Below, one piece after another: positions 200-31,235 of a stretch of 64,000 nt of DNA. Where the stretch lies: positions 32,001-96,000 of the IMG/VR virus record IMGVR_UViG_3300013121_000039. One strand, written 5' to 3'. The DNA comes from a virus. Its lineage: Duplodnaviria > Caudoviricetes. The first letter of the stretch is position 1. Each line of letters starts with the position of its first letter. The position numbers and the translations under genes were made by a program. The notes under the pieces are model-generated. The model saw nothing but the letters and a program-made list of their open reading frames with translations. It did not search any database and had not been told where the DNA came from.

Positions 200-571
200 C
201 TAGATATCCCCCGCCGAGGTGGCGAGGGGCGGTGGAAGGCTGTCCGGCACCGGCCGGCTGTTGAGGAACGGCTTCGAGGGATCCCTGCGCTTGTTGGCTG
301 CGATCTTCTTCATCTCGTCAGAGAACCCCTTCAGGAAGGCCAAGCTGCTCGTCTTGGACTTGCTGCTGGGGTCCGCCGTCTGCGTGTACTCCGACTGCGA
401 CTTCCGGTACTTCCTCTTCGCCTTCTGCTTCCCTTCCGCCGTCCCGTAGCCTCCGGGGGTGTGTCCTGTTGCGTGCGACTGCTGCGTGGCGATTGCGAAG
501 GCCTGGCTCTTCGGCATCGCCGGGTTCTTCGAGAGGATGTGCTCTGCCCTGTTGTGGATCCAGGCTGGCAT
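200..571 (-). CDS. Small basic putative internal virion protein
   Basis: GAGGAG RBS before ATG 571 (MPAWIHNRA); contains GFSDEMKKIAA motif. Confidence 0.7.
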   Translation of the reverse strand: MPAWIHNRAEHILSKNPAMPKSQAFAIATQQSHATGHTPGGYGTAEGKQKAKRKYRKSQSEYTQTADPSSKSKTSSLAFLKGFSDEMKKIAANKRRDPSKPFLNSRPVPDSLPPPLATSAGDI

Positions 572-589
572 GAGCTCCTCGAACAACAT

Positions 590-625
590 CCCAGGGGCGG
601 CGTCTCGTACCCGCCGCCCCTGGGA
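590..625 (-). terminator. GC-rich intergenic hairpin, possible terminator or processing site
   Basis: cccaggggcggcg / cgccgcccctggg inverted repeat between two minus-strand genes. Confidence 0.45.
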
Positions 626-634
626 AGGGGTGTG

Positions 635-1393
635 CTACTCCTCGGCCTCCTCGGCCTGCTGCTGGACGTAGCCGGCCTCGGTCAGCATCTCGATGGCGCG
701 CTGCTCGACGCGCTCGGCCAGGACCTCCTCCGGCGCGGCGGCCTTCTTCTCCTCGCCGACCTCGATGCCGTTCTCCGCGAGGATCTCGTGGGCCCGGCGG
801 AGGGCGAGCTGGTCGAGGGCGGAGGGCTGCTCCGTCTCGGCCGACGCCTTCTTCTTCTTCATCTTCTTGTAGGCCAGGGCGCCGCCACCGGCCACGGCCG
901 CGCCCGCGGCGCCGCCGATGTACTTCTTCTTGTGGGCCTTGAGGTGGGCGCCGACCTTGCCGCCGACCTCCTTGGCCTTCGCCTTGAAGGCCTCGGCGCG
1001 GGGGCCGGCGGTCTTCTCCTCGCCCTCGGCGGCGGCGATCTTGCGGAGCTCCTGCGTGTAGGCGTGCGCCATCACGCGGCCGAGGTAGTCGGCCTCGGCG
1101 AGCTTCTCCTGGGCCTCGGCGACCTTGGCCTCCTCGCCCTCCTCGGGCTCCTTGACCTCGGCCTCCTCGTCGTCCTCCTCGCCGGAGGCCTCCTGCTCCT
1201 CCTCCTCGCCCTCCTCGCCGGCGAGCGCGGCGGCGGCGAGCGCCTCGACCTGCTCGTCGGTGATCTCGGCGGGGTCGACCTCGCCCTCGGCGGCGAGCTT
1301 CTCGGCGAGCTCGGCCGCGGCCAGCTTCTCGGTGTCCTCGCCGTCCGAGACGTCCGTCCCGTAGAGAGCGGCGAGCTGGGGATCCATCGGCAT
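635..1393 (-). CDS. Acidic helical protein, putative head scaffold or internal protein
   Basis: AGGAG RBS; E/A-rich; directly downstream of the protease; many KLAA/KVAE/KTAG motifs and YTQELRKIAAA. Confidence 0.65.
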   Translation of the reverse strand: MPMDPQLAALYGTDVSDGEDTEKLAAAELAEKLAAEGEVDPAEITDEQVEALAAAALAGEEGEEEEQEASGEEDDEEAEVKEPEEGEEAKVAEAQEKLAEADYLGRVMAHAYTQELRKIAAAEGEEKTAGPRAEAFKAKAKEVGGKVGAHLKAHKKKYIGGAAGAAVAGGGALAYKKMKKKKASAETEQPSALDQLALRRAHEILAENGIEVGEEKKAAAPEEVLAERVEQRAIEMLTEAGYVQQQAEEAEE

Positions 1394-1456: not shown

Positions 1457-3178
1457 CTAGGCCGCGTGTGGGGAGTCCGTCAGGAAGTCCCTGGAATCGA
1501 GAACGGCCGCACCAGCGACCGCATCACTGCGCAGGAGGTCACGGTCCTTGAAGTGAGCGCCCAAGAAGTACGTCATCGAGTTGGGGGAGAGTACCTCGGC
1601 GCTGGACGTCTTGAGGAACATGGTGCCGAGTCCGTCTCCGAGAAGCTCTGCCCTCAACTTCGGGTCACTGTGGACTGCCGCGACGACTTGCGACAGCTTC
1701 TTCAAGACACCGCGCCGGTACCCGTTGTACGCGGCACTGACCTTGTCCAGCAAAGGATGCTCGACGGGGTCACGGGTGGGAAGGGCATTTTTCGCCGAAC
1801 CGCCTGAGATGAGGACCCGGATTTGGAAGGGCGACCCGATGGCCGATCGCTCTCTCACGTACTTCTTCAGAGTGGCGAAGACGGCGTCGAGAGGATCGAG
1901 GCGGGAGGGGAGACCGCCGAAGTCGAACCCCGGCACCTGGCGGAAGACCTTGTGGTCCCGGTCCAGCGTGTCGAGAAGGTCGTCCTCGCCCATCCGGCGC
2001 AGCGTGAGGTGCTGAAACTCCTGCGGCTTGAGGACGATCCCGAGGCGGGTCAGAGCCCCCAGGATGGCGGGGAGCGGGTGCCCGGACAGCTCTTCGAGAT
2101 CGGCCTTCCGGAAGTCCGGCTCGGCCTGCTCCAGCGTCCGCATCGAAGAGGAGAAAGCCGGAACCTTCTTGAGGATCTCGGCCACCTTCTTGGACGCCTG
2201 CTTCACGCCGAAGGCGGAGGCGAGCTTCTCCTCTTCGCACGCATCCTTGGAGGCGCACTCGGAGCACAACCTCCCACATGGCCCACGCCGCTCGTCTCCG
2301 CAGGACGCAGCCTTGACGGTGTGCGCCCCACCCTGGTGTTCAGGATTGAGCTCGGCCAGGGCCGGGGGAGGGCTGGACGACACCGCTTCCGCTGCACTGG
2401 GCAGGGCGCACACCGAACCGAGACACACCTGCCGGCCCTTCGCGGCCAGCTTCGCCATCACCTTGGCCGTCTTGTCGGCACCGATGAAGACGAAGCTGAT
2501 GTCGAAGAAGCGCGGGAGGGTGTTGACGACGTAGATCTTCCTGCCGTCCGGCAGGATCTTGTTGGGGCCGAAGATGCCGCGGAACTCCTCGGTCGGCCTC
2601 ATGTGCTTGCAGTAGTCGTCGCGCGTCTTCGACTTGTGCCCGCAGATGGAGCAGACGTCGAAGGGGACCCGGCAGCCCATGCTGACGTCCGGGAACTCGC
2701 CCTTCTCGATCCGAGTGATGATCCCTTCGGCGCCGCGCTCCTTGGCCTGGGCGCGGTCGAGCCGGATGATGAGCTCGACCCGCTTCATCCCGTGGTTCAG
2801 GACCGAGAGCACCGGCACCCCGAAGGCGCGGGCTGGGTCCTTGTTCACGTGGTGCTGGAAGGCGTGAGCGTTGAGGAAGGTGAGGTAGCCGTAGTCCTTC
2901 CCCGCGTGGGCCAGAGCCTCCCAGGGGAAGTAGTCGGCGTTGATGTTGGGGCCGAAGTACTCGCCGGCGCCCAGGGCGTTCACCAGGACGTAGAGGTAGT
3001 TCTTCCGGTCCTCGGCGGTGAGCTTCTTGATGTAGCGGCGAAGGGCCTCTCCAGTCTCCCAGTCCGAAAAGGGAGCCGCGCCGGCTGTCTTCTCGAAAGC
3101 TCCGGAGCTTCCGAAAAGGGCCTGCGCGTTGGTGCCGGCGTCTGATGCGCCGAGGAAGAGGACCTGCTTGTCCATCAC
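1457..3178 (-). CDS. Prohead (capsid maturation) protease
   Basis: HH-x-N segment followed by DVSMGC-x5-CSICG-x7-YCKH and FFDISFV, as in HK97/assemblin-fold phage proteases; head-module context. Confidence 0.7.
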   Translation of the reverse strand: MMDKQVLFLGASDAGTNAQALFGSSGAFEKTAGAAPFSDWETGEALRRYIKKLTAEDRKNYLYVLVNALGAGEYFGPNINADYFPWEALAHAGKDYGYLTFLNAHAFQHHVNKDPARAFGVPVLSVLNHGMKRVELIIRLDRAQAKERGAEGIITRIEKGEFPDVSMGCRVPFDVCSICGHKSKTRDDYCKHMRPTEEFRGIFGPNKILPDGRKIYVVNTLPRFFDISFVFIGADKTAKVMAKLAAKGRQVCLGSVCALPSAAEAVSSSPPPALAELNPEHQGGAHTVKAASCGDERRGPCGRLCSECASKDACEEEKLASAFGVKQASKKVAEILKKVPAFSSSMRTLEQAEPDFRKADLEELSGHPLPAILGALTRLGIVLKPQEFQHLTLRRMGEDDLLDTLDRDHKVFRQVPGFDFGGLPSRLDPLDAVFATLKKYVRERSAIGSPFQIRVLISGGSAKNALPTRDPVEHPLLDKVSAAYNGYRRGVLKKLSQVVAAVHSDPKLRAELLGDGLGTMFLKTSSAEVLSPNSMTYFLGAHFKDRDLLRSDAVAGAAVLDSRDFLTDSPHAA

Positions 3179-3783
3179 GACCTGGAGGACCCACCCGTCT
3201 TCGGCCTCTCGTCCTTGCTGCCCTGGACGGTGACCTTGGCGCCGCCGGAGAAGGGCGCATAGTAGGACTTCGCCTTCTCCGTCTGGGCCTTCACCATGCT
3301 CTCCATGAGCTTGTGGGCGCTGCCCTCCATCTCACCGGAGTGGACCACGTTGTAGACCATGGCCCCGGCGGCCATGGGGTCCGAGGCGACGTCCGGCGCA
3401 TGGCGCTGGAGCATGTGGAAGGCGCTCCGCACCCGCTCCTGGGGATGGTCCTTGAGGGCCGGGTTCGCCTCGATCATCCGCTTCCAGTTGCGGCCGCTGG
3501 TGAGGCCGCGCCGGCTGGCGTTGTAGAGATCCGTCGCGATGGCGGTTCCGAGACCGAGGACGACCGTGCCGGCGATGCCCTTGCCGACATCCGCGAAGAA
3601 GCCCCCCACCGAGGCCTCCTTGGACTTGCCGAGAGCGTAGGCGGTGATCTCCCGCATCTCGGCCGCCACTTCCTGGGCCGAGACGGGGTCCAGCGACTCC
3701 AGCTCCTGGAGCATGGTCGCCGTCTTCTGCATGAGGTCCGGCTTGGCCGCGTGGGCGGCCTTGATGATGTCGGTCTGGGTCAT
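3175..3783 (-). CDS. Hypothetical head-module protein
   Basis: 202-aa ORF overlapping both neighbours; QKTA and SKEAS motifs; one hydrophobic Gly-rich helix. Confidence 0.7.
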   Translation of the reverse strand: MTQTDIIKAAHAAKPDLMQKTATMLQELESLDPVSAQEVAAEMREITAYALGKSKEASVGGFFADVGKGIAGTVVLGLGTAIATDLYNASRRGLTSGRNWKRMIEANPALKDHPQERVRSAFHMLQRHAPDVASDPMAAGAMVYNVVHSGEMEGSAHKLMESMVKAQTEKAKSYYAPFSGGAKVTVQGSKDERPKTGGSSRS

Positions 3784-4034
3784 CGCGAGTCCGTCATGCC
3801 GAGCTGCTGACGCAGCACGCCCGGGCGCATGTTGTTGTAGGTCTTGCGGCCCGCCCCCACCGCAGCAGCGCCACCGAGGACCGCCGTGGTCGCCTTGACG
3901 GGATGGGCCAGGCCCCAGGCCACACCCTTCCCCGCCATCCGGCCGGCTGCGTTGAGCAGACCGGCCTCCTTCGCCAGGACCAGCCGCCGGAGCGCCTGTG
4001 ACGTCTGGGCGTGCTTGCGCAGCTCAGCCAGCAA
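3780..4034 (-). CDS. Small basic Gly-rich putative internal protein
   Basis: 84 aa, coupled to neighbours; MLAELRKHAQ and AKEAG motifs. Confidence 0.6.
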   Translation of the reverse strand: MLAELRKHAQTSQALRRLVLAKEAGLLNAAGRMAGKGVAWGLAHPVKATTAVLGGAAAVGAGRKTYNNMRPGVLRQQLGMTDSR

Positions 4035-4959
4035 GGAACTCCTCCCGGATGGCCTGCTTCACCCTGTCGAGCTGCATGTCGACGTCCTCCAGGGCGGAGG
4101 CCACCTTCTCCGTCTCGTCGAGGAGGTTGTGGAGCGCCGAGAAGCCGGCGACGAAGGGGTGGGTCGGATCGACGACGCGGTGGGCCACCTTGGAGAGGCC
4201 GCGGCTCTGGAGGGTGATCTCGTCCACCGAGGCCACCTTCTCGTCGATCAGGCGCTTGATGAAGGGGCCGAGGATGGAGGCGATCTTCTGGGACGGCAGC
4301 CCCGTCTCGTTGGCACCCCGCAGGACGTCGACGAAGCTGCCGCCGTCCATGAGGTGCCTCTTCATCGAGTCGTAGTAGTCGGCCTCGGCCGTCTTGAGCA
4401 GGATCTCGAACCTCTCCCCGGAGGAGGCCAGGTTGTCCCGGAGGTCGATGAGATCGTGCTTGGCGTTGACGATCACCTCGGCGGCGGACTCCGGGGTGAA
4501 GTCCACCGCGGCGGTCTTCGCCTGGCTGCCGGTACCGAGGAAGAGCTCCTCCAGAGCCCGCTCCCTCTCCGGGGTGGAGATCGAGGAGCGGCTCGGAGAC
4601 GCGAGGTAGGTCACGTCGGCCACCTGGCCCTCCTGGGACTGGGCGTTCGAGAGCTTCTTGAGGACAGCCTGCGGGTCGGCCAGTACGAACTGGGGGTAGC
4701 TGTGCTCCGAGCCGGCGGTCTTGTTCTTGTCGTGGAAGGAGAGGTAGGCCGCCGTGTTGGCGAACTCGACCACCCGGCGGACCTGCTCCGCGTTCATGTC
4801 GGGGTGCTGGGAGGCGATCTTCACCACTCCGTCGGTCAGGGGGACGTTCTTCTCGATGAGCAGGGAGGCGGCTTCCTTGCCCATGAGCTCCAGCTTCTCG
4901 GGGGTGAGGGCAAAGCCTCCGGTCCCGGAGAGCAGGTACTTGGAGAGATCATCGGCCAT
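4024..4959 (-). CDS. Hypothetical head-module protein
   Basis: 311 aa; KEAA, KIAS, KTAG, KTAA and KVAS motifs. Confidence 0.75.
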   Translation of the reverse strand: MADDLSKYLLSGTGGFALTPEKLELMGKEAASLLIEKNVPLTDGVVKIASQHPDMNAEQVRRVVEFANTAAYLSFHDKNKTAGSEHSYPQFVLADPQAVLKKLSNAQSQEGQVADVTYLASPSRSSISTPERERALEELFLGTGSQAKTAAVDFTPESAAEVIVNAKHDLIDLRDNLASSGERFEILLKTAEADYYDSMKRHLMDGGSFVDVLRGANETGLPSQKIASILGPFIKRLIDEKVASVDEITLQSRGLSKVAHRVVDPTHPFVAGFSALHNLLDETEKVASALEDVDMQLDRVKQAIREEFLAG

Positions 4960-5019: not shown

Positions 5020-5715
5020 GTGGGAAGCGATTTTCGAGACCTGGTGACAATGGAAGAAGCGGCCAAGATGCTGGGTCGCACGGTCCGCTCTGTCCGCTCA
5101 TACATGAAGACCGGCCTGCTGCGCAGGATCGTGGACAGCAAGAAGGTCTTCATCCCGAGGACCGACGTGGAGCAGCTCCAGGTCGAACTCGGAGCCGGCT
5201 TCCCGCCGATGAACCGCAAGACCTTCAACCAGCTGGTGGCCCACGTCCAGCGGCTGGAGATGGACCTCGTCGTCCTGAAAAGGATGAACGGCGTCTACGA
5301 CTCCCCACTTCGCCCGACGAAGGAGGAAACATCCAACCTCTTCCAGGCCTGCGTCGCAGCCCTCTCTGCGGGCTCCTGGACCCTCTCGGAGATCTCGCAG
5401 TGGGCCGACCTCTTCGAGAAGATGGATGACGTCTTCTTCGAGGTGCTAGCCGACAACATCGGCGTCTCCGACCCGTGGAGGCCCTTCTACCAGATCTGCG
5501 TGGCGCAGATGAAGCAGCTCTCCTCCATGGAAGGGTACAAGTCCTCTCTCGAACTGCAACATCTTCACAGCCGTCTCTCCATCGGCCTCTCCACGATGCG
5601 GCGTGTGATCATGGTCTGGATCGAGGCGGGGCGTAGCGAGAAGGCGCACGCAGTGGCGACGCTCATGGATGGGATCTCAGAAGCAGTGCTGCGTCGACTC
5701 ACAGCAAAAGCGTAG
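5020..5715 (+). CDS. HTH DNA-binding protein (excisionase/MerR-like N-terminus)
   Basis: LVTMEEAAKMLGRTVRSVRSYMKTGLL...IPRTDVE pattern. Confidence 0.75.
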   Translation: MGSDFRDLVTMEEAAKMLGRTVRSVRSYMKTGLLRRIVDSKKVFIPRTDVEQLQVELGAGFPPMNRKTFNQLVAHVQRLEMDLVVLKRMNGVYDSPLRPTKEETSNLFQACVAALSAGSWTLSEISQWADLFEKMDDVFFEVLADNIGVSDPWRPFYQICVAQMKQLSSMEGYKSSLELQHLHSRLSIGLSTMRRVIMVWIEAGRSEKAHAVATLMDGISEAVLRRLTAKA

Positions 5716-5735
5716 AGCCTCCGGAGATAAGAAGG
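5704..5735 (+). promoter_or_regulatory. Putative phage-RNAP promoter GCAAA-N18-ATAAG
   Basis: Same spacing as the copies at 23721, 31323, 36935 and 50737. Confidence 0.5.
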
Positions 5736-5774
5736 TGACGGGTAGTTCTTCACCTTTTTCGGAGGCAACACATC

Positions 5775-6092
5775 ATGCAGCCTGACCAGTCCACCGGCGC
5801 TCCGTCCAGCGCCAAGACCTTCAACATCACCTGCAACGCCGAGGAGCTCGTCGGCATCGCCAAGGGCGCCGCCATCGCGGGCGACGTCAAGACCGTGAGC
5901 CGCGCCGAGGAGCTGCTCGGCCAGAAGGTGGAGGTCGGCTTCTTCGACCGCCACCCCATGACCACTGGCGTGGCCATCGGCGTCGTCGCCGGCGCGGCCG
6001 TCGCCGGCGGCACCATCCTCGGCGTGCAGGCCTACAAGCGGCGCCAGGCCGCCAAGCTCCAGGCTCCCAGCCGGCTGCGCCGGGTGGGCTAG
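5775..6092 (+). CDS. Small membrane protein
   Basis: GGAGG RBS; one C-proximal hydrophobic helix followed by a basic tail. Confidence 0.75.
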   Translation: MQPDQSTGAPSSAKTFNITCNAEELVGIAKGAAIAGDVKTVSRAEELLGQKVEVGFFDRHPMTTGVAIGVVAGAAVAGGTILGVQAYKRRQAAKLQAPSRLRRVG

Positions 6093-6187: not shown

Positions 6188-6237
6188 AGCGCGCGGAGTC
6201 GGGACTCACCCCCCGACTCCGCCCCGCTTTCTTAGCC
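6188..6237 (+). terminator. Hairpin + TTAGC terminator
   Basis: gcggagtcggg / cccgactccgc stem then TTTCTTAGC at a convergent junction. Confidence 0.55.
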
Positions 6238-8031
6238 ATCTTCCGGCGCAGCGTACCCGGTCTTCTGGGTCGGGTTCATCACGTCGTAGCGCGGGTGCCT
6301 GATCATGGAGGCCAGGAAGCAGAGCAGGATGGAGTGGTAGGAGTCGTCCGTGGCATCAGGCGCATGCTTGTACTGCACCTGCCTCTGGACCTCGTTGTAC
6401 TCCGAGAAGATGGAGAGCATGTCCTTCGCGAAAGGGTCCTCGAACTGGGGCCAGTTCGGGAAGCGGAGCACGTCCCGGCGCTTGATGGCGTTGAAGATGT
6501 CGCTCATCACCTCGGTGCGGTGAACGAGGAAGCGCTGGAGCCCCTCCTCCCACTTCACCTTCTGGCCAGGCTGGCTGTACTGGTACTTCACGAGGCGCTG
6601 CTTGCCGAAGATGCGGGCCAGGGCGTCGTTGCGGTCGAAGCCGCCGCCGTAGTCACAGCCCACCAGCTTGACGTCCCAGTACCGGATGAGCTTCTCGATG
6701 AGGTCCAGCTGGATGGGGGGCTCGATCTCCTGCCCCTCGAACCGGTGGATGTAGAAGATGGTGAAGAAGCCGTGCATGTAGGCGCCGAGGGAGAGGACGG
6801 TGTAGCTGCCCTCGCCGGTGCCCCAGTCGATGCCGGCGTAGACGGGGGAGCTGCCGCCCAGGAACCCCTTCAGCTTCACCAGGCTCTCGGAGTCCATCGA
6901 CAGGCTGTCGAGGCAGTTGTCCATCACGTCCTGGCGCGTGAGGGGTCGGGTGCCGGAGTCGTACGAGAGGCCGAGCACCTCGTTGTAGAACTGGCTCCGC
7001 GGGTACTTGATGTACTTGTCGAAGATCTCGCCCCAGTTCAGCCAGGGCACCATGAGCTGCGGGATCCGGTAGCCCTCGTACCAGTCCTTCAGCTTGTCCT
7101 TCACCCCGGGATTCATGGTGACCCACTGGGCCATGGGGTGCCGAGGGTCGATCCGCTCGCCGCACTTGTCGCAGACGAGGCCCTCCTTCGAGATGTGGGC
7201 CTCCCCCAGGATGTTCCAGTGCCAGCTGCTGGGGTTGTTCGGAGTGCCGTGCCGATCGCAGGGGACCGCCCACTCGTTCTGGGTCGAGTAGTTGGTCCAG
7301 TAGTGCTCGATGGCGTTGTCGTAGCTCTTCGGCGTGCCGGAGTAGATGAAGAGCTTGTAGTGGGAGTGTGAGGCGCACTCCTCGATGACGGGGATGTTGT
7401 CGGTGATGATGTCCTGGATCTCGTCGAGGAGGACGAGGTCCGCAGGGATGCCGCGAGTACGATCGGCGTTGTGGTAGGCGTACCGCAGCGTGATCTGGCT
7501 GCGGTTGATGAACTTCTTGAGGAAGACGTTGTCCGAGAGCTTCGAGGTCGTCCAGGCCTTCAGGATCTCCGACGTCTCGATGGGCTCCTTGAGCCGGTCG
7601 GCGGAGAAGGTCTTCGTCTGCTGGTTGGTCGGGGAGACGTAGAGGACGTTGAAGGCGTTGATGATGCAGCAGTAGGCCAGCGTCTTGTTGCCGAGGAGCG
7701 TCGACTTCTCCACCTGCCGGCCACACTTGTAGAGGGTGCGGCGGGAGGGGGTATCGTAGGGGAGGCGGAGGTACTCACGCTTCTTGAAGCTGAAGTTGAT
7801 GTGCTTCTGAAGCTCCTTGTCCGGGAGCTTCACGGCGAACTCGACGAACTGGGAGGGGGAGACGTTGATGAGCTCGGCCTGCTTGCGGGCCAGCTCGTCG
7901 TCGCTCATGAACTCGTCGGTGATCTCCGGCTCGTAGTCCCACTCCTCCCGCAGCTCGGGCTGCCCGCTCTCAGAAACGATGATGTTGGAGGTCTCCCGCC
8001 TCCATCGGCCGTAGTCGAGCACACTCTGCAT
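6232..8031 (-). CDS. terL: Terminase large subunit (lambda GpA-like)
   Basis: Walker A-like KCGRQVEKST, Walker B LVLLDE, coupling motif SGTP, Zn-ribbon insert, nuclease AGIDWG and terminal DDSYH. Confidence 0.9.
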   Translation of the reverse strand: MQSVLDYGRWRRETSNIIVSESGQPELREEWDYEPEITDEFMSDDELARKQAELINVSPSQFVEFAVKLPDKELQKHINFSFKKREYLRLPYDTPSRRTLYKCGRQVEKSTLLGNKTLAYCCIINAFNVLYVSPTNQQTKTFSADRLKEPIETSEILKAWTTSKLSDNVFLKKFINRSQITLRYAYHNADRTRGIPADLVLLDEIQDIITDNIPVIEECASHSHYKLFIYSGTPKSYDNAIEHYWTNYSTQNEWAVPCDRHGTPNNPSSWHWNILGEAHISKEGLVCDKCGERIDPRHPMAQWVTMNPGVKDKLKDWYEGYRIPQLMVPWLNWGEIFDKYIKYPRSQFYNEVLGLSYDSGTRPLTRQDVMDNCLDSLSMDSESLVKLKGFLGGSSPVYAGIDWGTGEGSYTVLSLGAYMHGFFTIFYIHRFEGQEIEPPIQLDLIEKLIRYWDVKLVGCDYGGGFDRNDALARIFGKQRLVKYQYSQPGQKVKWEEGLQRFLVHRTEVMSDIFNAIKRRDVLRFPNWPQFEDPFAKDMLSIFSEYNEVQRQVQYKHAPDATDDSYHSILLCFLASMIRHPRYDVMNPTQKTGYAAPEDG

Positions 8032-8048: not shown

Positions 8049-8375
8049 ATGAGACCGCCCGGACTGGCCTGGTTGACTTCCTTCTGCGACTCCATCGGCA
8101 CCGCGATGGGGCAGACCATCGTCTCAGACGTCAAGAACAGCGTCAATCCACTCGTGTACACCACCTCGGTGTCCTGGCGCGACCCGGTGAAGATGGACTC
8201 GGCCGTTCAGGTCTGGAACCTCTTCCAGAAGTGGGCCGCCGCGAACCGCTGCACCCCCTCTGGTCGCGTGACCTTCCAGCAGTTCGAGAAGCTGGGGGCG
8301 ACCCTGGTTCTCGGGCTGTCGGTCGAGGTGCACCTGCGTGAGAGGCTTGGACATCCGCAAGATCGTCACCCCTAG
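8049..8375 (+). CDS. Hypothetical protein
   Basis: 108-aa ORF divergent from terL; codon usage typical of the window. Confidence 0.6.
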   Translation: MRPPGLAWLTSFCDSIGTAMGQTIVSDVKNSVNPLVYTTSVSWRDPVKMDSAVQVWNLFQKWAAANRCTPSGRVTFQQFEKLGATLVLGLSVEVHLRERLGHPQDRHP

Positions 8376-8390
8376 CTGCCATAAGGAAAG
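8357..8390 (+). promoter_or_regulatory. Putative phage-RNAP promoter GCAAG-N19-ATAAG
   Basis: CATAAGGAAAG upstream of ATG 8410; spacer 1 nt longer than the consensus. Confidence 0.45.
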
Positions 8391-8409
8391 CAGAAAGGGG
8401 TTTCTAGCC

Positions 8410-8607
8410 ATGAGAACGTTCAATGCAACGCCCGGGCACATCTGCAAGCTGTGCGACAAGGCCTTCGTGGAAGGGGAGCAGGTCGTCCTCATCTCCATCG
8501 GCCCATCCGACGCTGAAGAGGCTGAGAAGAAGGCGGCCGGGAAGGCCTACACCAGTGAGGCGGTCGTCTCCCATGTCGAGCACATCCGAGAATTCCTGCT
8601 CGGCTAA
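8410..8607 (+). CDS. Small putative Zn-binding protein
   Basis: 65 aa; CKLC and HVEH motifs. Confidence 0.6.
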   Translation: MRTFNATPGHICKLCDKAFVEGEQVVLISIGPSDAEEAEKKAAGKAYTSEAVVSHVEHIREFLLG

Positions 8608-9272: not shown

Positions 9273-9736
9273 CACTTCCCGCCGAGCTGGTGGTGCAGGT
9301 CGGTGACCGCCTTCACAGCGAGGTCGAACCAGAACTGCTTGCGGCCCACGCCGGCCGCCTTGGCGTACCAGGAGCCGAGGTCCCGCTGCTCCGAGATCTC
9401 GGTGAGGCCGAAGTGGTGGGTGAGGACTGCCCGCAGGACCGGGCCGAAGCCGGTCGGGAACGGGGGCCTGGGCTTGCCATCCCTGTCGGCCTGGTGGAGC
9501 CCCCAGGGCCAGAAGTGGAAGATGAGGTCCCCGTCCTTCACGCCGAACTCCCCCTCGAAGATGCCCGGGCTGCGGACCTCTTGGAAGTGGACGGGCTTGA
9601 TCGGACGGTCCCCGGCGTTCGCCTCCTGCCGGATGATCGGCAGGCTGCCGGCCTTCACCTCGTCGAGGAGCGCCTCGCGCTCGGTCGTGACGGTGAGCTT
9701 CTTCCGCTCCTTGTGGCTCTGCTCGACCCAGCTCAT
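9272..9736 (-). CDS. Hypothetical protein
   Basis: 154 aa, ATGA-coupled to the upstream gene. Confidence 0.7.
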   Translation of the reverse strand: MSWVEQSHKERKKLTVTTEREALLDEVKAGSLPIIRQEANAGDRPIKPVHFQEVRSPGIFEGEFGVKDGDLIFHFWPWGLHQADRDGKPRPPFPTGFGPVLRAVLTHHFGLTEISEQRDLGSWYAKAAGVGRKQFWFDLAVKAVTDLHHQLGGK

Positions 9737-16244: not shown

Positions 16245-16253
16245 CTTCTTCTC

Positions 16254-17315: not shown

Positions 17316-17318
17316 GGG

Positions 17319-23753: not shown

Positions 23754-23800
23754 AAGCAGGAGTTCCTCAGTTCACCTCTCACTTTTTGGAGCAAGTCACG

Positions 23801-23932
23801 ATGACGACCGGCAAGAGCACCACCGACTTCGAGGATGAGGTCCACGACGCCTTGCTGGGGGGCCTGGTCGAGGATGATCAGGAAGAAGAAGAAGACGTGG
23901 AAGACGGGGATAAGAAGGAAGAGGAGGAGTAG
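23801..23932 (+). CDS. 43-aa very acidic peptide
   Basis: GGAG RBS; MTTGKSTTDFEDEVHDALLGGLVEDDQEEEEDVEDGDKKEEE; below the ORF-track size cutoff. Confidence 0.6.
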   Translation: MTTGKSTTDFEDEVHDALLGGLVEDDQEEEEDVEDGDKKEEEE

Positions 23933-24052
23933 ATGGGTCTTTTCTTCGCGGCATTCGTGGCGTCGTTTTGCGGGTACTTCCTGATGCGGGCGGGGATGGA
24001 GATCTTCCGCGTCCAGCAGGAGGAGGCCTGGCGGCAAGCGCAGGGAGCGTAG
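23933..24052 (+). CDS. 39-aa membrane peptide
   Basis: GAGGAG RBS; MGLFFAAFVASFCGYFLMRAG...; TAGATG junctions on both sides. Confidence 0.55.
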   Translation: MGLFFAAFVASFCGYFLMRAGMEIFRVQQEEAWRQAQGA

Positions 24053-24481
24053 ATGGAACATCCTGTCCGCGTCGCCTTCTGCAAGATCCTCTTCTGGAAG
24101 AACGGAGGCACGTTCGACGTCAGAGGCATGCCGATCCGGGCGCAGCGGCAGCAGTACATTCGTGGGAAGTGTTCCCAGCCCTACGACTGCGGACAGTGCT
24201 CCCTTCTCCAAGAGTGGCTTGCCTCCCTTAGCGCTGCCGGATGGCAGTGGGGGTGGGAGTGCGACGCCTGTCTCAAGGAGACGCTGGGGCAAGATCGAGC
24301 CGCCGGGACCGAGAGGTTCGTGCAGGGCTACTACCAGGCCGGCCGCAAGGCAGACCTCTCGCCGGACGACCCCGACTTCGACCCAGACCGTCCTCAGCTC
24401 GAAGGCTGCACCAGGTGCGGCTGGGAGAGCTCCTTCTTGCAACTCGTGCTCAGGAGGCTTCCCCCTCAAGCATCCCCATGA
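24053..24481 (+). CDS. Cys-rich hypothetical protein
   Basis: CGQC, CDAC and CTRC motifs. Confidence 0.65.
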   Translation: MEHPVRVAFCKILFWKNGGTFDVRGMPIRAQRQQYIRGKCSQPYDCGQCSLLQEWLASLSAAGWQWGWECDACLKETLGQDRAAGTERFVQGYYQAGRKADLSPDDPDFDPDRPQLEGCTRCGWESSFLQLVLRRLPPQASP

Positions 24482-24843
24482 CCAGCTACTACCAATCAAT
24501 CTTCCCAGGGCACCAGTCGTCCGACCTCAAGACCGCAGAAGGAGAGCCGATCTACACCGGGCCGTACACCGCCGCCCAGGCTCCGTTCCTGGAGTGTGCA
24601 GCTTGCGGCGGTGCCATCACCGTAGGGCAGCGGGTGACGCTGGTCCAAGAGGTGATGCTGGCCATCACCCACAGCGGGAAGCTGATGTACCTCCCGCTCG
24701 TCGATTTCCCAGAGCAGGCGTTCGTCCACTCCGACTGCTCCTCGGACTTCGCCCACGACCAGATCACGAAGGAGCCGTGCGAGAAGGACGAGGACACGTA
24801 CTGCGCTGGCTGCGAGGTCAAGCTAGGAGGTGAGTCTGAGTGA
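24478..24843 (+). CDS. Zn-finger hypothetical protein
   Basis: ATGA overlap; CAAC, HSDC and CAGC motifs. Confidence 0.65.
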   Translation: MTSYYQSIFPGHQSSDLKTAEGEPIYTGPYTAAQAPFLECAACGGAITVGQRVTLVQEVMLAITHSGKLMYLPLVDFPEQAFVHSDCSSDFAHDQITKEPCEKDEDTYCAGCEVKLGGESE

Positions 24844-24860
24844 GCCTGTCCGCCGAGTAG

Positions 24861-25079
24861 ATGCGCGAGCCCCTCACCGAAGAGGACATGGACGACCTCG
24901 TCGACTACCTGACCTCGCTCTCGGACACGGTGAAGGGGTACTTCGACCGGATGCGCACCCAGACCCAGGGCAACTCGCCGATCTCCGACACCCTGTGGGC
25001 CTCGCACTGCGCCCTCAACCAGGAGGTGGACCGTCTCACAACGCTTCGGCGCAGCTACGTCTGGCCGAAGGGGAAGTAG
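24861..25079 (+). CDS. Hypothetical protein
   Basis: 72-aa helical ORF. Confidence 0.6.
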   Translation: MREPLTEEDMDDLVDYLTSLSDTVKGYFDRMRTQTQGNSPISDTLWASHCALNQEVDRLTTLRRSYVWPKGK

Positions 25080-25111: not shown

Positions 25112-27232
25112 CTAGACGCCGGTCGAGGCGATGCGGCGGGTCGGCTTCTGCTGCGGCTGCGGACTCTGGATCGCGTCGAGTGGGTTCTCCTGCGAGCCAC
25201 GCTGCTGGTTCAGGATCTGGAGGACCAGCGAGCCGAGCTGCGGGTTGCCCATGCGGAGCTTGTTGAGCTCCATGTTGGCCTGCATGGGCCCCTGCTCCTT
25301 CTCGATCTTCTCGATCTGGTTGGCGGCCCGCTTGGCGAGGTACTGGAGGTTGTAGCCGCCGCCCTTCTGCCCCATCTGGAGCGGGGACTGCATCGCCTCC
25401 GGGAGCCCTTCCTGCGGCGCCTGCTGTGCGTTCTCCGGCGAGACCGTCGTGCCCTCGGGCATGGACGGGTCGACCTGCTGCCCGTCGATCATCTCTCCCT
25501 GGGCCCCGCTGGCCGGGGTGGGCTGGCCCATGGCCCCGGGCGGGCCCTGCTGACCGCCCTCGGCTCCCTGCTGACCGCCCATCATGGCGTCGAGCCCGCC
25601 GGCGCCGGCCGCGGCATCCCCACCGACCCCCATCTGCTGCCCGCCGTTGGCTGCCTGCGCCTCGGCCTGGGCCTTCATCATCATCTCCTGGCTCTTGGCC
25701 GCGTAGCGGCCCTGGACCAGGGAGACCTCGCCCATGATGCCGGCCTGTGCCAGCTGCTGCTTGCGCATGATGGCCAGCTGGCGGTCCATCTCCTTCTGCC
25801 GACGCTCGTCCTCGACCCCCGCCTCGAAGTCGCACTCGCTGAGGAGGGTCTGGTCGGAGATCTTCTGCGCCTGGTTGAGCTGGAAGTGGAAGGCCATCCG
25901 CTGGAGGTCGTCCGCCATCTTGAAGCGCTTCATGTGCGCCCTGACCACGGGCCACTCCATGAAGTCGGCGATGCGCCGGATGACGAAGTTGTTGAGCATG
26001 TTCTCGTGGTCCTGGCGGTACCCGATGAACATGTTCTCCAGCATTCGCATCGAGACGTTCGAGCCGGAGTACTGCATGCCGCCGAAGATGAACTCCTCGG
26101 GCACGCCCATGCCGGCCACGATGTGGCGGCTCCAGACCTCCATCTCCTGGTAGAGGCCGAGCGCCTTCCCGTCACCGCCGATGGTCTCGTTGCCGATGGG
26201 CAGTGGCAGGATGGGGATGTAGTTGTTGTCGTACTTCCACTTGGCGATCTCGGTCTCGATGCGGCCCTTCCAGGCGTTGAGGTCGACCGTGGTGTACGGG
26301 TCTGAGGTGCTGGACCCCGCCTGCGGGAAGAGCACGCGCAGCGGCACGATGTGCTCTTGCGCGATGGTCTCCTGGGCCTTGCGGAGCACCTGGAGGTAGA
26401 AGGTGTCCTTCAGCACCGGCATGATGAGCGGCATGCCCCAGCCGTTGTCCTTCTGACTGATGATGGGGCGCCGCATCACGAAAACGTTGTCGTCGGTGAA
26501 GCGGATGTACTTGTTGCGCCGCAGGGCCTCGACGAAGACGTCGGAGACCGTGTCGAGGACAGTCTTCTTGCCGAGGATGAGGTCGTTCTTGAGCTGGAGC
26601 GGAAGCTCGAAGGTGTAGACGGGGTCCGCGCCGCCGAAGCCCGGGTCGACGTTGAGGTACTCCGGATTCCAGCGCATGAGCCGGATCCGGCGGTAGTCGC
26701 GCTCGAAGAAGTCGAGGACGGTGGCCGGCCCTTCGTGGTGGCACTTGTCGCAGGCGAGGATGTACTCCAGGTTGCGCCACTTGTAGTGGACCGCGGACGC
26801 CTTGTGCCGGTGCTTGCAGGCCTTGCAGATGAGCCACTTCGTGAACGGGAAGTGGATGGTCACCACCACGATCCCGTAGGTGTAGAAGTCGAGGCCGCAC
26901 TCGATCTGGAAGGCGCGGTAGCGCAGGTGCTGGCCCAGCACTTCTTCCCACTTCTGCCTGACCTCGTTCTTCGTCTCGTCGATGACGATCTCCGTCACCG
27001 GGTACTCGCTCATCTTGTGGATGGTGGTGTTGATGAGCGGGTTGACGAGGTAGTAGTAGCGGCACCACCTGAGCAGCGCCTTCATCGACGGCGGCAGGTA
27101 GGTGTGCGCGATGTCGAAGAAGGGGGATGGGTAGCGGACACCGCTTCTGTTGGTCCCGTCGGCAGTGCGGCCGCGCTGCCCGGAGAACCGAGCTGCGCCG
27201 GAGGCACCCAACGAGAGAGAGTCCATGCTCAT
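25112..27232 (-). CDS. Portal protein
   Basis: Portal-like layout (YYYLVNPLI, FYTYG, WGMPLI, IVAGMGVPEEFI); CKAC/CDKC insert; long Q/G/P/M-rich tail. Confidence 0.75.
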   Translation of the reverse strand: MSMDSLSLGASGAARFSGQRGRTADGTNRSGVRYPSPFFDIAHTYLPPSMKALLRWCRYYYLVNPLINTTIHKMSEYPVTEIVIDETKNEVRQKWEEVLGQHLRYRAFQIECGLDFYTYGIVVVTIHFPFTKWLICKACKHRHKASAVHYKWRNLEYILACDKCHHEGPATVLDFFERDYRRIRLMRWNPEYLNVDPGFGGADPVYTFELPLQLKNDLILGKKTVLDTVSDVFVEALRRNKYIRFTDDNVFVMRRPIISQKDNGWGMPLIMPVLKDTFYLQVLRKAQETIAQEHIVPLRVLFPQAGSSTSDPYTTVDLNAWKGRIETEIAKWKYDNNYIPILPLPIGNETIGGDGKALGLYQEMEVWSRHIVAGMGVPEEFIFGGMQYSGSNVSMRMLENMFIGYRQDHENMLNNFVIRRIADFMEWPVVRAHMKRFKMADDLQRMAFHFQLNQAQKISDQTLLSECDFEAGVEDERRQKEMDRQLAIMRKQQLAQAGIMGEVSLVQGRYAAKSQEMMMKAQAEAQAANGGQQMGVGGDAAAGAGGLDAMMGGQQGAEGGQQGPPGAMGQPTPASGAQGEMIDGQQVDPSMPEGTTVSPENAQQAPQEGLPEAMQSPLQMGQKGGGYNLQYLAKRAANQIEKIEKEQGPMQANMELNKLRMGNPQLGSLVLQILNQQRGSQENPLDAIQSPQPQQKPTRRIASTGV

Positions 27233-27235
27233 GCG

Positions 27236-27940
27236 CTAGTCCCTGAGGCCTTGGGGTGGGGGCGGCAGCGAAGGAGGATGCGCCGGCTTGGGCCGGACGC
27301 CGCGGAGCTTGTCGACGGCCGCGCCGGCCGTGTCACCGATCTTGCTGCCGACCATCGACGAGAGCAGGCCTCCGGTGAATCCGAATGGGGCACCGATGAT
27401 ACCCCCAGCCTGGTCTCCGGCGAAGCGAAGAGCTCGCCTCACCCGGCTGTGGCCCTGGCCAGAGGGGTCCTCTCGCTTGAGGACGTCCCTGGTCCCGGTG
27501 AGCAGACCGTACCCCATCAGCGCCTTCCATGGCAGGCTGAGTGGCTGCCCGCCAGGCCGCCAGGTGGACTCCCACCCCTTCTGGAAGCTCTTCTTGGGAG
27601 ACGCCCAGGCCGCGGTCGCCTTGCCCAGGTTCTTCCCGACCCCCTCGGCCTGGTTCCGGACGAACCGCGTCGCCCGGCTGCCGAAGGCCTGGGCCTGCCC
27701 AGCAGCCTGCCCCATGTCGAAGGCCGTCTTCACGTTGCCGACGTGGGCCTTCTTCACCTTGTCGCCGAAGGCGCACTTCCCACAGGGCCCGTGGTAGCTG
27801 CGCAGGTCTCTCGTCGACCCGCACTCGTCGCATCGCGGCTTGTGGAGCTTCCCACAGTCCGGACACGTGATGATGCGCGCGACCTTCGTCTTGGAGATCT
27901 GGTCGACCTCGTCGAGGAAGGAGAGCAGGTCCGGGATCAC
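27236..27940 (-). CDS. Putative internal protein with Zn ribbon and glycine zipper
   Basis: GTG at 27940 overlaps the upstream stop; LLSFLDEVDQISKTKVA leader; CPDC/CDEC/CGKC; VKTAF. Confidence 0.65.
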   Translation of the reverse strand: MIPDLLSFLDEVDQISKTKVARIITCPDCGKLHKPRCDECGSTRDLRSYHGPCGKCAFGDKVKKAHVGNVKTAFDMGQAAGQAQAFGSRATRFVRNQAEGVGKNLGKATAAWASPKKSFQKGWESTWRPGGQPLSLPWKALMGYGLLTGTRDVLKREDPSGQGHSRVRRALRFAGDQAGGIIGAPFGFTGGLLSSMVGSKIGDTAGAAVDKLRGVRPKPAHPPSLPPPPQGLRD

Positions 27941-28878: not shown

Positions 28879-28879
28879 C

Positions 28880-29464
28880 TTACTCCCAGTACTGGCTGGC
28901 TCCGTGCTGGACCACGAAGGGCTGGTGGGTCTGCGGCACCGCGATCGGCTTGGCGATCGGCTGCTTCACCACCCGCTTGGAGACGGCATGCATGGCCGGG
29001 TTCTGGAGCATCTGGGCATCCCCGGCGGCTCGCGGCAGGACCTTGGGAGCCGCGGCCCGCAGACGGGCCGCCGCCGCCCTGGGGTCGACGAGCTTGTTGG
29101 GAGCAGGCGCCGCCTTGGCTGCCTGCCAGGCTCCTTGGAGGGCGCCCTGACGCAGCATGGCCTTCGGATCGATCGTCGCGAGCTTGGGCTTCTTGAACGC
29201 CTTGTAGGCCGAGTGGGCCAGGTGCATCGCCGATGGGGCGGCGAGGATGCCGAGACCTGCGAGCTCGTACTTGGCAGCCTTCCGCTCTTCGGGTGGCGTC
29301 TCCTTCTTCTTGATCTTCCGGAGACGGTGCACGCTCGGGACGGCGAGGACTCCGAGGCCCGCGAGCTCGGCAGCGTGGGTCAGATGTTCGCCGATGGCCG
29401 CCTCCTTCTCCAGCTCGGAGGAGACGGCAGCGGCCAGGGCCCTGAGACGCTGTGGGTGGAGCAT
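28880..29464 (-). CDS. Basic putative internal protein
   Basis: Start MLHPQRLR; VSSELEKEAA motif; duplicated ELAGLG(V/I)LA-PS segment. Confidence 0.65.
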   Translation of the reverse strand: MLHPQRLRALAAAVSSELEKEAAIGEHLTHAAELAGLGVLAVPSVHRLRKIKKKETPPEERKAAKYELAGLGILAAPSAMHLAHSAYKAFKKPKLATIDPKAMLRQGALQGAWQAAKAAPAPNKLVDPRAAAARLRAAAPKVLPRAAGDAQMLQNPAMHAVSKRVVKQPIAKPIAVPQTHQPFVVQHGASQYWE

Positions 29465-29781
29465 CAGCGCACCTTCATGACGGGCTTCCGCCCGAGGAGC
29501 CCCTTCTTGGCGGCGACGTCGGACAGGCGCGCCGCGGCAGCCTGTGGGGACACGAGCCTCTTCGCCCGCGCCTGCTCGTTGGCCCACGACTGGAAGGTGG
29601 GATGCTGGCCGACCGGCTGCCGCACCGGGGTCGGCTTGAGGGCAGCCGCCGGTGCGGCCAGCGGCTTCGCCACCTGGCCGATGTTCTTCACGTTCATCGC
29701 CCGGCCCATGCCGCCGACATCCCCGAGGGCTGCGATCTTGGTGAGCTCGTCGAAGAAGGCGTTCAGCGTGACGCGGGTCAT
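29464..29781 (-). CDS. Small basic putative internal protein
   Basis: N-terminal LNAFFDELTKIAA. Confidence 0.7.
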   Translation of the reverse strand: MTRVTLNAFFDELTKIAALGDVGGMGRAMNVKNIGQVAKPLAAPAAALKPTPVRQPVGQHPTFQSWANEQARAKRLVSPQAAAARLSDVAAKKGLLGRKPVMKVR

Positions 29782-31235
29782 GGCACCATCCGGGTGATGA
29801 GGGCCTTGTGGGCGTCCGGCATGGAGTCGAAGATCGCCGTGGGGTTGGCGCCGAAGGCCTCCACGAAGTCGGACGAGAAGGTCTGGGAGAGCTGCTCGGT
29901 GGGGATGGAGCGGAGCGCCGCCTCGTCCACCGACTCCCCGTCAGCCCCCTGCCAGGCCCACGCCACCTTCTCCTGCCCACGGCCGCCGAACGTGGCGAAG
30001 TAGGGGTCCTGGATCGCCCCACCCCAGTGGAGGTCGAGGTCGAAGAGCTGGTCGGCCTCCTTGAGGAGCTTGGCGAAGGTCTCCGGCTCGATCATGGCCC
30101 TCTTCTCCTGGAGGTCGTCCCAGACCTCCGTGTGGGCGGGATCGACCTGCCGGCGGTTGGCGAGATGGGCCTCGACGTCGGGGGCGTACTCGGTGGACCC
30201 GTAGCGGTCCAGGAGGGCAGGGACCTGGATGCCGAGCTCGTCCGCCCGGGCCGCCGTCTTCACGGCGAACTCGTGCCGGTCGGCCGGCTCCATCACGGTC
30301 CAGGACTCCTCGAAGAAGCGGATGGCGTCCGTGACGTCGGAGTAGCTGTCGAGGGAGTAGCGGTCCCCGAGGGCGTGGCGGGAGGCGACCTTCCTCTTCG
30401 ACACCGGCCTCGGCTCCATGGAGGAGACGTCGACGACGTTGGCGACGTGGGCAGCCTTCTTCACCTTCTTCGTCTCGCTGGACGGTCCGTGGGCGACCCG
30501 GTGCGCGAGACGACCGGCGCCGTACCCGAGGAGGGCGTTCTTGCCGGCGTCGACGGCGAGCGGGACGGGGTAGCGCAGGGGGTTCACGCCACTGACCATG
30601 GCAGCAGGGATGGTGGCGGCCGCTCCGACCATGGCCCCTCTGCGCCCCCACCTGCGGGCCCGATCCCGCGTGGACTCGGTCTCCGCCTTGGCCGCCGTCT
30701 TCATCTGGTTGGCGGTGGGGATCACCCGGCCGGAGTCGGCGCCGCCACGGACGGAGATGAGGTTGGTGCGTTGGGCCCAGTCGGCCTCGTCTCCGACGTA
30801 GGGCTCGTTCTTGGAGTCCCGCTTGCGGGCGAGGGCCGTGGCGGCAGCCTTCTTCTCCCGGACCGGCAGCCCGGTCTCGGCGGCGAGGAGGAGGTCGGGC
30901 GGGACGTCGAGTCCGAACTCCTGGTTGAAGGCGATGAGGTTCTGGGCGGCCGTCTTGATGGCCTCGGCCGGCAGCTTCTCGGCGTTCTCCAGGAAGTAGA
31001 GGGTCGAGAGCGCCGTGTTCCCCTCGTCGACGCAGGCGAACTTGCGCAGGTGCGAGTCGCCCGCGTGGAGGATGAGGGCGAAGGCCTCGTCGCGGAGCAC
31101 GTTGCGCTCCTCCGACGAGAGGAAGTGGGCCGTCTTGATCGACTCCGGCAGGTCGTCGGGAGACGGGCACCAGCTCTTCAGCACCTCCCCGCCCTTGTCG
31201 TCGTAGAAGTCGAGCACCAGTCCGGCTGTCTTCAT
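29778..31235 (-). CDS. Head-module protein with multiple K-x-A sites
   Basis: AGGAG RBS; MKTAG, IKTAH, IKTAA, MKTAA, RKVAS, VKTAA and EKVAW motifs. Confidence 0.75.
   Translation of the reverse strand: MKTAGLVLDFYDDKGGEVLKSWCPSPDDLPESIKTAHFLSSEERNVLRDEAFALILHAGDSHLRKFACVDEGNTALSTLYFLENAEKLPAEAIKTAAQNLIAFNQEFGLDVPPDLLLAAETGLPVREKKAAATALARKRDSKNEPYVGDEADWAQRTNLISVRGGADSGRVIPTANQMKTAAKAETESTRDRARRWGRRGAMVGAAATIPAAMVSGVNPLRYPVPLAVDAGKNALLGYGAGRLAHRVAHGPSSETKKVKKAAHVANVVDVSSMEPRPVSKRKVASRHALGDRYSLDSYSDVTDAIRFFEESWTVMEPADRHEFAVKTAARADELGIQVPALLDRYGSTEYAPDVEAHLANRRQVDPAHTEVWDDLQEKRAMIEPETFAKLLKEADQLFDLDLHWGGAIQDPYFATFGGRGQEKVAWAWQGADGESVDEAALRSIPTEQLSQTFSSDFVEAFGANPTAIFDSMPDAHKALITRMVP

Follow-up and report, generated by a model that had tools for sequence, protein, structure and literature searches.

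Tagged proteins of the virion gene run

The window analysed here, a stretch of 64,000 nucleotides, covers bases 32001–96000 of a single 138,310-bp contig of an uncultured soil phage (65% GC; IMG/VR record IMGVR_UViG_3300013121_000039) for which CheckV estimates a genome completeness of 72%. The first 31.3 kb of the window form a single long minus-strand run of virion genes, and several otherwise unrelated proteins encoded in this run share a ten-residue peptide, hereafter the tag, which resembles F-x-D-E-L-E-K-I-A and usually lies close to the N-terminus. The run includes the genes for the large terminase subunit (6232–8031, minus strand), assigned by matches to phrog_675 (E 9e-62) and Pfam GpA_ATPase, and for the portal protein (25112–27232, minus strand; phrog_16240, E 6e-8), to which 24 related loci were found at 42–79% identity. 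The major capsid protein is encoded directly left of the window (genome positions 29023–30141), as is, at genome positions 15249–18554, the tail sheath, and a second minus-strand block at genome positions 96.7–128.8 kb contains baseplate genes. Judged by its sheath and baseplate genes, the phage is a myovirus.

A sequence-only reading of this stretch had listed nine sites with such a peptide, proposing that it loads unrelated proteins into the phage head. All nine peptides were found in minus-strand open reading frames (ORFs), and seven of them are tags, scoring 15.7–32.7 bits on an 11-column matrix built from tag instances. The canonical N-terminal tag AFFDELTKIAA (29728–29760, minus strand, as are the other six; 32.7 bits) occupies residues 8–18 of a 105-aa basic protein (29464–29781) with a mature pI of 11.9, GFYDELDKIAM (10576–10608; 28.7 bits) residues 12–22 of a 302-aa basic protein (9733–10641), and SFIDELTKIAE (11214–11246; 28.5 bits) residues 6–16 of a 207-aa protein (10638–11261). 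In the 234-aa protein encoded immediately upstream of the portal gene (27236–27940), the tag SFLDEVDQISK (27890–27922, residues 7–17; 18.1 bits) has Q-I-S in place of K-I-A, retains the F-x-D-E-[LV] half and is followed by K-V-A at residues 19–21; orthologues of this protein bear AFTDELEKIAL and AFLDELEKISG. The tag AVSSELEKEAA (29396–29428; 15.7 bits), at residues 13–23 of a 194-aa protein (28880–29464), is degenerate, and orthologues carry canonical versions (SFFDELEKISS in relative G003, AFADEFQKIAG in G005 and SCRDELSKIAG in G007). Two further instances are internal: GFSDEMKKIAA (296–328; 25.2 bits) at residues 88–98 of a 129-aa protein (200–589), encoded between the scaffold-like gene and the head gene that comes next, and AYTQELRKIAA (1031–1063; 19.0 bits), a tag-like block inside the acidic scaffold-like protein (635–1393). 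Orthologues of the 129-aa protein in G001 and G005 keep the internal tag at about residue 84–88, and the syntenic gene of G004 has the tag at the N-terminus.

The two remaining sites of the nine did not stand. GFISELMSIGG (12148–12180, minus strand), at the C-terminus of a 466-aa basic protein (12145–13545), is a marginal look-alike scoring 9.1 bits, as about one sequence in each shuffled proteome is expected to do; it is missing from the G004 orthologue and is probably not a tag. The string LLAELRKHAQ in a small ORF (3780–4034, minus strand) was rejected as a chance resemblance, with a score of −20.4 bits and an orthologue lacking the motif.

The pattern F.DE[LMV].KIA occurs four times in the window, always in a minus-strand coding frame. 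Across the whole genome, 12 matches reach at least 12 bits, compared with 0.1 in shuffled sequences, which rules out chance, and outside the window there are four further clear carriers and a weak FFNELIRVS variant (1.4 bits). Tags were found in 12 of the 75 genes of the two late structural blocks and in none of the 76 other genes (Fisher p = 1.4e-4), which agrees with the earlier remark that the motif was not seen in replication proteins and runs against an equal frequency in non-structural proteins. An unbiased search for common N-terminal 10-mers returned one clique in this genome, made up of nine of the carriers. The slots adjoining the portal, scaffold-like, protease-like and capsid genes show conserved synteny across relatives. 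Carrier families also occur in the tail and baseplate blocks (genome positions 19315–19662 and 120404–120712 and, in relatives, the orthologue of 119070–120404), so that the earlier description of the carriers as head-module proteins proved too narrow for the location of their genes.

Conservation of the tag and properties of its carriers

Uncultured relatives in IMG/VR, with portal identities of 42–79%, are represented by contigs mostly 130–210 kb in length, and those at 65–79% portal identity derive from many metagenomes. A search of a phage collection for a cultured member of the clade found none, the nearest phage being Salmonella phage Arash, with a portal identity of approximately 30%. 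Six related genomes were combined with this one into a seven-genome set, to which the counts below refer unless stated otherwise. Each of the six relatives carries 5–10 tags, and the seven genomes together contain 52 matches at 16 bits or more, compared with 0–0.4 in shuffled, reversed and alternative-frame controls. The tag begins at residue 6–15 in 41 of the 52 instances, most often at residue 8, with exceptions in the p129 family and the scaffold-like block, where it is internal; the peptide, described earlier as mostly terminal, is therefore N-terminal specifically, with the supposed C-terminal site falling away.

A pattern scan of IMG/VR identified at least 119 stretches with the tag, and pooling these with all loci gave at least 244 distinct instances, from which the consensus M-x(4-10)-[ASG]-F-x-D-E-L-E-K-I-[AS] was derived. 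Information content is 1.8–3.8 bits at nine of the ten tag positions and 0.6 bits at the variable x, with D4, E5 and K8 invariant in the consensus, and directly after position 10 it drops to 0.1–0.25 bits, marking a sharp boundary. Positions 11 and 12 are variable and no G-G is present at the tag end, and upstream of the tag only the Met, most commonly seven residues before it, and a hydrophobic preference at positions −4 to −2 are discernible. By our reading of the profile, the hydrophobic positions −2, 2, 6, 9 and 10 would lie on one face of a helix.

The tag is essentially uniform across the clade, offering no co-variation with lineage as evidence of a co-evolving receptor, and is unchanged in relatives with capsid protein identities down to 33% and GC contents of 32–70%. 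Cys-containing variants in G006 are encoded by adjacent genes that may be recent duplicates. Synonymous sites of the tag codons follow the GC content of the genome, and the DNA upstream lacks conservation, indicating that selection is on the peptide itself; a DNA- or RNA-level element behind the repeat was ruled out on these same grounds. A literature search for the strings DELEKIA, DELEKIS, DELTKIA and FDELEKI returned no paper.

A scan of 596 Gb of cellular genomes yielded mostly internal and unrelated matches, among them UvrB-like, Campylobacter, Bacteroides and Nostoc proteins, and mimicry of a universal host protein was rejected for this reason. The only cellular look-alike at the right position is the N-terminus of PhoU in two Hyphomonas species (Hyphomonas beringensis, L266:976–1773, minus strand, and locus L353), where Hyphomonas has MSEHIVSAFTDELEKIAA. 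These PhoU proteins begin MSEHIVSAFTDELEKIAADLMRMGG, a 32-bit match including the preceding residues, which may be compared with VNESIVSAFMDELTKIAAGG at genome positions 120404–120712. A search of the Hyphomonas genomes with one query found no portal homologue; the match is cellular and probably a convergence of the N-terminal helix.

The sequence-only reading described the carriers as otherwise dissimilar, and indeed the 51 carriers fall into 35 BLAST families. Several phages encode tandem arrays of 4–7 carriers with near-identical first 15–20 residues, and in five of the six arrays the mature parts have no detectable similarity to one another. The carriers have a median length of 152 aa. Following removal of the leader, which is acidic (median pI 4.6), their median pI is 10.3 and 96% exceed pI 9, compared with 6.7 and 28% for size-matched other proteins (p = 4e-24). 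A sharply bounded N-terminal module on unrelated and uniformly basic proteins is consistent with the comparison to the internal proteins of phage T4 on which the earlier proposal was built.

Few carriers could be assigned a function. The 207-aa protein (10638–11261) is a permuted papain-like (C92/YiiX) cysteine amidase (Pfam PF05708, E 1.9e-7) in which the alignment shows invariant Cys and His residues, and most of the homologues found are also tagged. Its AlphaFold2 model (pLDDT 81), the single carrier fold predicted, matches 3kw0 and 2if6 in Foldseek (E 4e-7 to 1e-4) and places the tag within a helix spanning residues 4–25, with low confidence there; together with the one-faced hydrophobic pattern, this model supports the earlier suggestion that the peptide forms an amphipathic helix. 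The 302-aa protein (9733–10641), with a mature pI of 10.3, has a glycine zipper match at E 2.6e-5, below the curated Pfam cut-off, and one carrier has a weak Bacteriocin_IIc match. The 466-aa protein (12145–13545) is very basic and built from repeated segments that resemble glycine zippers; a J-domain-like stretch containing an HPD motif (YRDLAMKTHPD) lies in mid-protein (DnaJ PF00226, E 6.4e-6, falling slightly short of the cut-off). The protein was found only here and in G004. Pfam and PHROGs searches with the carriers revealed no families beyond the C92 amidase, glycine zippers and the J-domain-like segment, and a Pfam search with 40 carriers of the relatives gave two glycine-zipper matches and nothing else.

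The K-h-A motif, a candidate protease and tag-like blocks in head proteins

The N-termini of core head proteins show a recurrent E-K-[T/I/L]-A, and the tag itself ends in K-I-A. When 400 X-h-Z tripeptide classes (h being I, L, V, M or T) were compared in the head module, K-h-A was the sole outlier, with 76 occurrences against 25.2 expected (z = 10.6; next class z = 3.3). In every one of the seven genomes the motif clusters in eight head families, namely the acidic scaffold-like protein, three other Ala/Lys/Glu-rich proteins, an 899-aa protein, a 485-aa protein, the protease-like protein and the capsid protein N-terminus. In this genome the scaffold-like protein (635–1393, minus strand) has six sites against 0.9 expected, the core head protein p311 (4024–4959, minus strand) eight against 0.6, the 899-aa protein (13545–16244, minus strand), with a conserved N-terminal R-K-T-A-A, 13 against 1.8, and the 485-aa protein encoded by the first gene of the portal operon (29778–31235, minus strand), which starts M-K-T-A-G, seven against 0.9; the core head protein p202 (3175–3783, minus strand) also contains K-h-A sites. 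No enrichment was found in the portal, RNA polymerase, terminase or sheath proteins. Twenty-five K-h-A sites are conserved in position, compared with 0–2 for control tripeptides, in proteins that are otherwise poorly conserved.

The mature parts of the 45 N-tagged carriers present the opposite pattern: rich in K and A, they contain nine K-h-A sites against 22.6 ± 4.5 expected, whereas 293 equally basic non-carriers show no depletion (101 against 93.9 ± 8.3). Many K-h-A sites in proteins that would be destroyed and few in those that would survive form the signature of a maturation protease, and we infer that K-h-A is the cutting motif of the head-maturation protease of this phage. The depletion implies that the carriers encounter a protease cutting at K-h-A, and the conservation of the tag stops exactly at its own K-I-A, in keeping with the proposal in the sequence-only reading that the peptide ends in a cleavage site. 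No description of K-h-A as a protease specificity was found. The 234-aa protein (27236–27940), which has kept F-x-D-E-[LV], changed K-I-A to Q-I-S and bears a K-V-A two residues on, suggests that the two halves of the tag are separable and have different jobs, docking and cutting.

A candidate for the protease is a 573-aa head protein (1457–3178, minus strand) that matches phrog_18299, annotated as head maturation protease, at E 8.4e-7 and NCBIfam NF045541 at E 0.018, with Peptidase_S77/S78 clusters as the nearest named Atlas clusters (0.89–0.91). Invariant FEKTAG (residues 28–33) and GADKTAKVMAKLA (residues 233–245) motifs bracket a conserved His/Ser domain. The AlphaFold2 model of this protein is poor (pLDDT 41).

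Tag-like sequence also occurs in two proteins of the head itself. The best-conserved block of the scaffold-like family, EADYLGRVMAH-[AS][YF]xQELRxI, is present in all seven genomes, and its second half aligns with the tag at 19 bits here and 14.9 bits in G007. The capsid protein N-terminus bears a shorter relative of the tag, F-[FL]-[DE]-K-[VI]-[AS], that is conserved across the clade and reads SFIDKI in Arash. The tag may imitate a helix by which the scaffold-like and capsid proteins would bind each other, and such imitation would account for unrelated proteins joining the core.

Between the portal and terminase genes, within the virion operon, lies a gene for a 2093-aa fused beta-beta' multisubunit RNA polymerase (17319–23600, minus strand; Pfam Rpb2_6, E 1e-60), in which the beta part comprises Rpb2 domains 2, 3 and 6 and the beta' part Rpb1 domains 1–5. 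The polymerase measures 2087–2169 aa in all six relatives and is split into two genes in Arash, where the beta subunit, encoded next to the portal gene, ranked first in abundance among the proteins seen by mass spectrometry of virions (PMC10585845). By analogy, the fused polymerase is a candidate for packaging in the virion. It is untagged and has three K-h-A sites against 3.7 expected.

The head genes of Arash (OQ632216.1, about 144.5–153.7 kb, locus L367) contain 47 K-x-A sites against 22.9 expected (z = 5.8), the most over-represented x-spaced pair in these genes, as in LTKQAAA close to the protease N-terminus and in VKEAG, which lies close to that of the capsid protein. Since a search of Arash for common N-terminal 10-mers revealed no shared tag, the comparison indicates that an older processing system acquired the tag later and that the tag is not the sole way into the capsid.

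A proposed capsid-targeting leader and its alternatives

We favour, with a probability of roughly 60%, the reading that the peptide is a capsid-targeting leader working in the manner of the capsid-targeting sequence (CTS) of T4. The leader would consist of approximately 15–20 residues at the N-terminus, namely the Met, 4–10 variable residues and the tag. Its first half, with hydrophobic residues at −2, 2, 6 and 9 and the invariant D4, E5 and K8, would be an acidic helix, amphipathic in character, by which the carrier docks onto the scaffolding core or the inner shell of the assembling prohead, and the K-I-A at its end would be a K-[ILVMT]-A cut site of the head-maturation protease, cleaved after A or after K. 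Once the shell has closed, the protease would destroy the scaffold-like proteins, which have 5–13 sites each, and clip the leader off the cargo, leaving basic mature proteins that would stay with the DNA and be delivered with it into the host. Docking, the receptor, cleavage, virion residence and injection are all steps that we infer.

Several observations weigh against this reading. The matches that make 1457–3178 the candidate for tag removal are weak, a Pfam search of the genome for S78 found nothing, an hhalign comparison of the protease family with T4 gp21 gave a probability of 0.1 and no match, and PDB sequence and profile searches with the protease-like protein came back empty. K-h-A could serve for binding instead of cutting. 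Three carrier families are in tail or baseplate blocks, which a system confined to the head would not predict, and the polymerase, if it is packaged at all, enters untagged, so that the tag would not be the only route into the capsid. The distant relative Arash has the K-x-A signal and no shared tag.

Placement in the tail, baseplate and accessory regions is also what would be expected if the tag docked on some other common partner, such as an assembly chaperone, the phage RNA polymerase, a conserved host protein, the portal or neck, or the lumen of the tail or baseplate, making the carriers a client regulon. The J-domain-like segment of one marginally tagged protein and the striking look-alike at the N-terminus of the alphaproteobacterial PhoU of Hyphomonas point the same way. 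However, a host partner is unlikely to be constant across phages of 32–70% GC, and the PhoU match is cellular and probably convergent. The avoidance of K-h-A and the uniformly high pI fit residence with DNA and protease, and the tag-like scaffold block and the related capsid N-terminus point to the prohead interior, leaving a partner elsewhere rather unlikely.

The leader might instead serve only as a recognition element for processing, in which the helix and K-I-A are read together by the protease and the propeptide keeps basic, possibly membrane-active or lytic, proteins inert. Double-glycine leaders, which commonly contain E-L-x-x-I, are extended helical leaders read by a protease and provide a precedent. 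Such a role would suit a tag that ends in the putative cleavage motif and is conserved no further, the K-h-A sites that other head proteins bear near their N-termini without the F-x-D-E-L half, and the K-x-A signal of untagged Arash. It leaves unexplained, however, the strong conservation of nine of ten tag positions when K-h-A alone apparently suffices at more than 60 other sites, as well as the retention of the helix half in 27236–27940 despite the loss of K-I-A. The depletion of K-h-A in the mature parts implies co-residence with the protease and hence, where that is a prohead protease, a place inside the prohead, and processing without targeting is for these reasons a poor prospect.

An N-terminus left over from common descent or from recombination at gene starts, without a function of its own, is highly improbable: tandem arrays with identical leaders do suggest duplication, but the array bodies are unrelated by BLAST and the carriers span 35 families, the tag persists at 33% capsid protein identity while bodies turn over, and the unconserved upstream DNA, synonymous variation and sharp boundary all speak for a maintained peptide. 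Similarly, very little speaks for a secretion signal, whether a double-glycine leader or another, that would take the carriers out of the cytoplasm; the tag shares with the double-glycine leaders of class II bacteriocins and competence peptides, which C39 peptidase domains cut, an N-terminal position, a length of about 18 residues (against approximately 15–25), an E-L-x-x-I core followed by small residues and what would be an amphipathic helix read by the processing protease, and the glycine-zipper carriers and the Bacteriocin_IIc match fit as well, yet double-glycine leaders end in G-G, which the tag lacks, and need a C39-domain ABC exporter, of which the C39 peptidase (PF03412) was not found in this genome, estimated at 72% completeness; the leader is acidic and not hydrophobic, unlike a Sec/Tat signal, and its genes lie in virion operons.

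A broader form of the capsid-targeting reading, which we advance tentatively, is a clade-wide programmable cargo system of deeply branching uncultured myoviruses of roughly 130–210 kb, in which leader-bearing proteins would co-assemble with the scaffold and be released by a K-h-A prohead protease. The leader would mimic the scaffold-like [AS]-[YF]-x-Q-E-L-R-x-I and the F-x-[DE]-K-[VI]-A arm of the capsid protein. The cargo would be injected effectors, dozens of fast-changing basic proteins with anti-defence, envelope-breaching and takeover functions that accompany a virion RNA polymerase.

The closest known parallel is T4, in which the CTS of the internal proteins IPI, IPII, IPIII and Alt, as reportedly described by Mullaney and Black in 1996, is removed by the gp21 prohead protease. 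The T4 internal proteins are small, basic and diverse, having in common only an N-terminal CTS of 10–19 residues, the front residues of which target the protein to the scaffolding core and the last of which form the gp21 cleavage site; this site recurs many times in the T4 core proteins, and T4 relatives carry other basic proteins with CTS-like leaders (PMC9026906, PMC3012670). The present leader is likewise a short N-terminal module, of approximately 15–20 residues, on unrelated small basic proteins, with a front that would target, an end that bears the putative protease motif and the same putative motif throughout the scaffold-like proteins. In both cases cargo genes turn over between related phages as the leader stays. 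Compared by eye and without alignment, MKTYQEFIAE of T4 and x-F-x-D-E-L-E-K-I-A have no likeness; the putative motif is K-h-A here and (L/I)-x-E in T4, the protease-like protein has no hhalign match to gp21, carriers number up to about 12–15 per genome against a handful in T4, and the phage lineage is unrelated, with an RNA polymerase in its structural operon. On these sequence comparisons the system is not homologous to that of T4. What these phages encode is probably a T4-like system of targeting and processing that differs from that of T4 in its tag and its putative protease motif, has far more cargo and is spread over a large uncultured clade.

In phage P1, the first 30 residues of DarB suffice to send the protein, or a reporter, into the capsid, a signal reported for one 250-kDa protein and not as a consensus on many (PMC9024508). 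The likeness lies in an N-terminal peptide that directs a protein into the capsid for delivery with the DNA. To our knowledge, no shared consensus or coupled protease site has been described for P1. In the giant phages phiKZ, 201phi2-1 and SPN3US, propeptides of head and ejection proteins are cut at A/S/G-x-E by the prohead protease and a targeting role has been proposed for them; these propeptides are mostly 111–254 residues long, no common consensus is reported and, unlike K-h-A, the motif ends in Glu (PMC10052503). As is proposed for the present phage, the prohead protease of these giant phages cuts many head-internal proteins at a simple motif of three residues, and a virion RNA polymerase accompanies them. 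Encapsulin cargo-loading peptides are short, terminal, usually C-terminal and unremoved, and bind the interior of an HK97-fold shell in systems without DNA, scaffold or protease, with a cargo consensus resembling G-S-L-x-I-G-S-L. They resemble the tag in being short terminal peptides common to unrelated cargo and differ in that the tag is N-terminal, has another consensus and belongs to the shell of a tailed phage with portal, terminase and sheath.

If the favoured reading is true, a ten-residue string would list the capsid-borne and probably injected proteins of a whole uncultured clade directly from sequence. Anti-defence and takeover functions tend to reside in small, fast-evolving proteins of this kind, which otherwise escape annotation. 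The system would then also be a second, independent example of the T4 logic, in which a helix is joined to a protease site, the scaffold is rich in sites and the cargo free of them, making that logic look like a general solution and not a T4 peculiarity, with a K-h-A motif unlike the Glu-ending motifs of T4 and phiKZ-like phages. The leader would also be short and portable enough to serve as a handle by which foreign proteins are loaded into such capsids. The contrast between enrichment and depletion offers a general route to predicting protease motifs and capsid cargo without proteomics.

Some further features of these loci concern gene layout. Small plus-strand gene islands at 5044–6092, 8073–9244 and 23786–25079 break the minus-strand structural block, flanking the terminase gene and preceding the portal gene, and some of their genes have homologues at the same places in relatives. 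The protease-like gene of G006 (L095:2907–5759) contains an insertion of approximately 380 aa within the conserved GAGE motif that resembles an intein or homing endonuclease, and that of G004 (L067:13249–18273), encoding 1674 aa, probably also contains an insertion; the terminases of G004 and G006, at 963 and 970 aa compared with 599 here, probably do likewise. Two N-terminal tags were also found on a 71,667-bp contig binned in a bacterial metagenome-assembled genome (CALEMW010000041.1; locus L248); that metagenome-assembled genome encodes, on contig C41, a portal protein 47% identical to that of this phage, and the tagged contig is probably of phage origin and was binned with cellular DNA by mistake.

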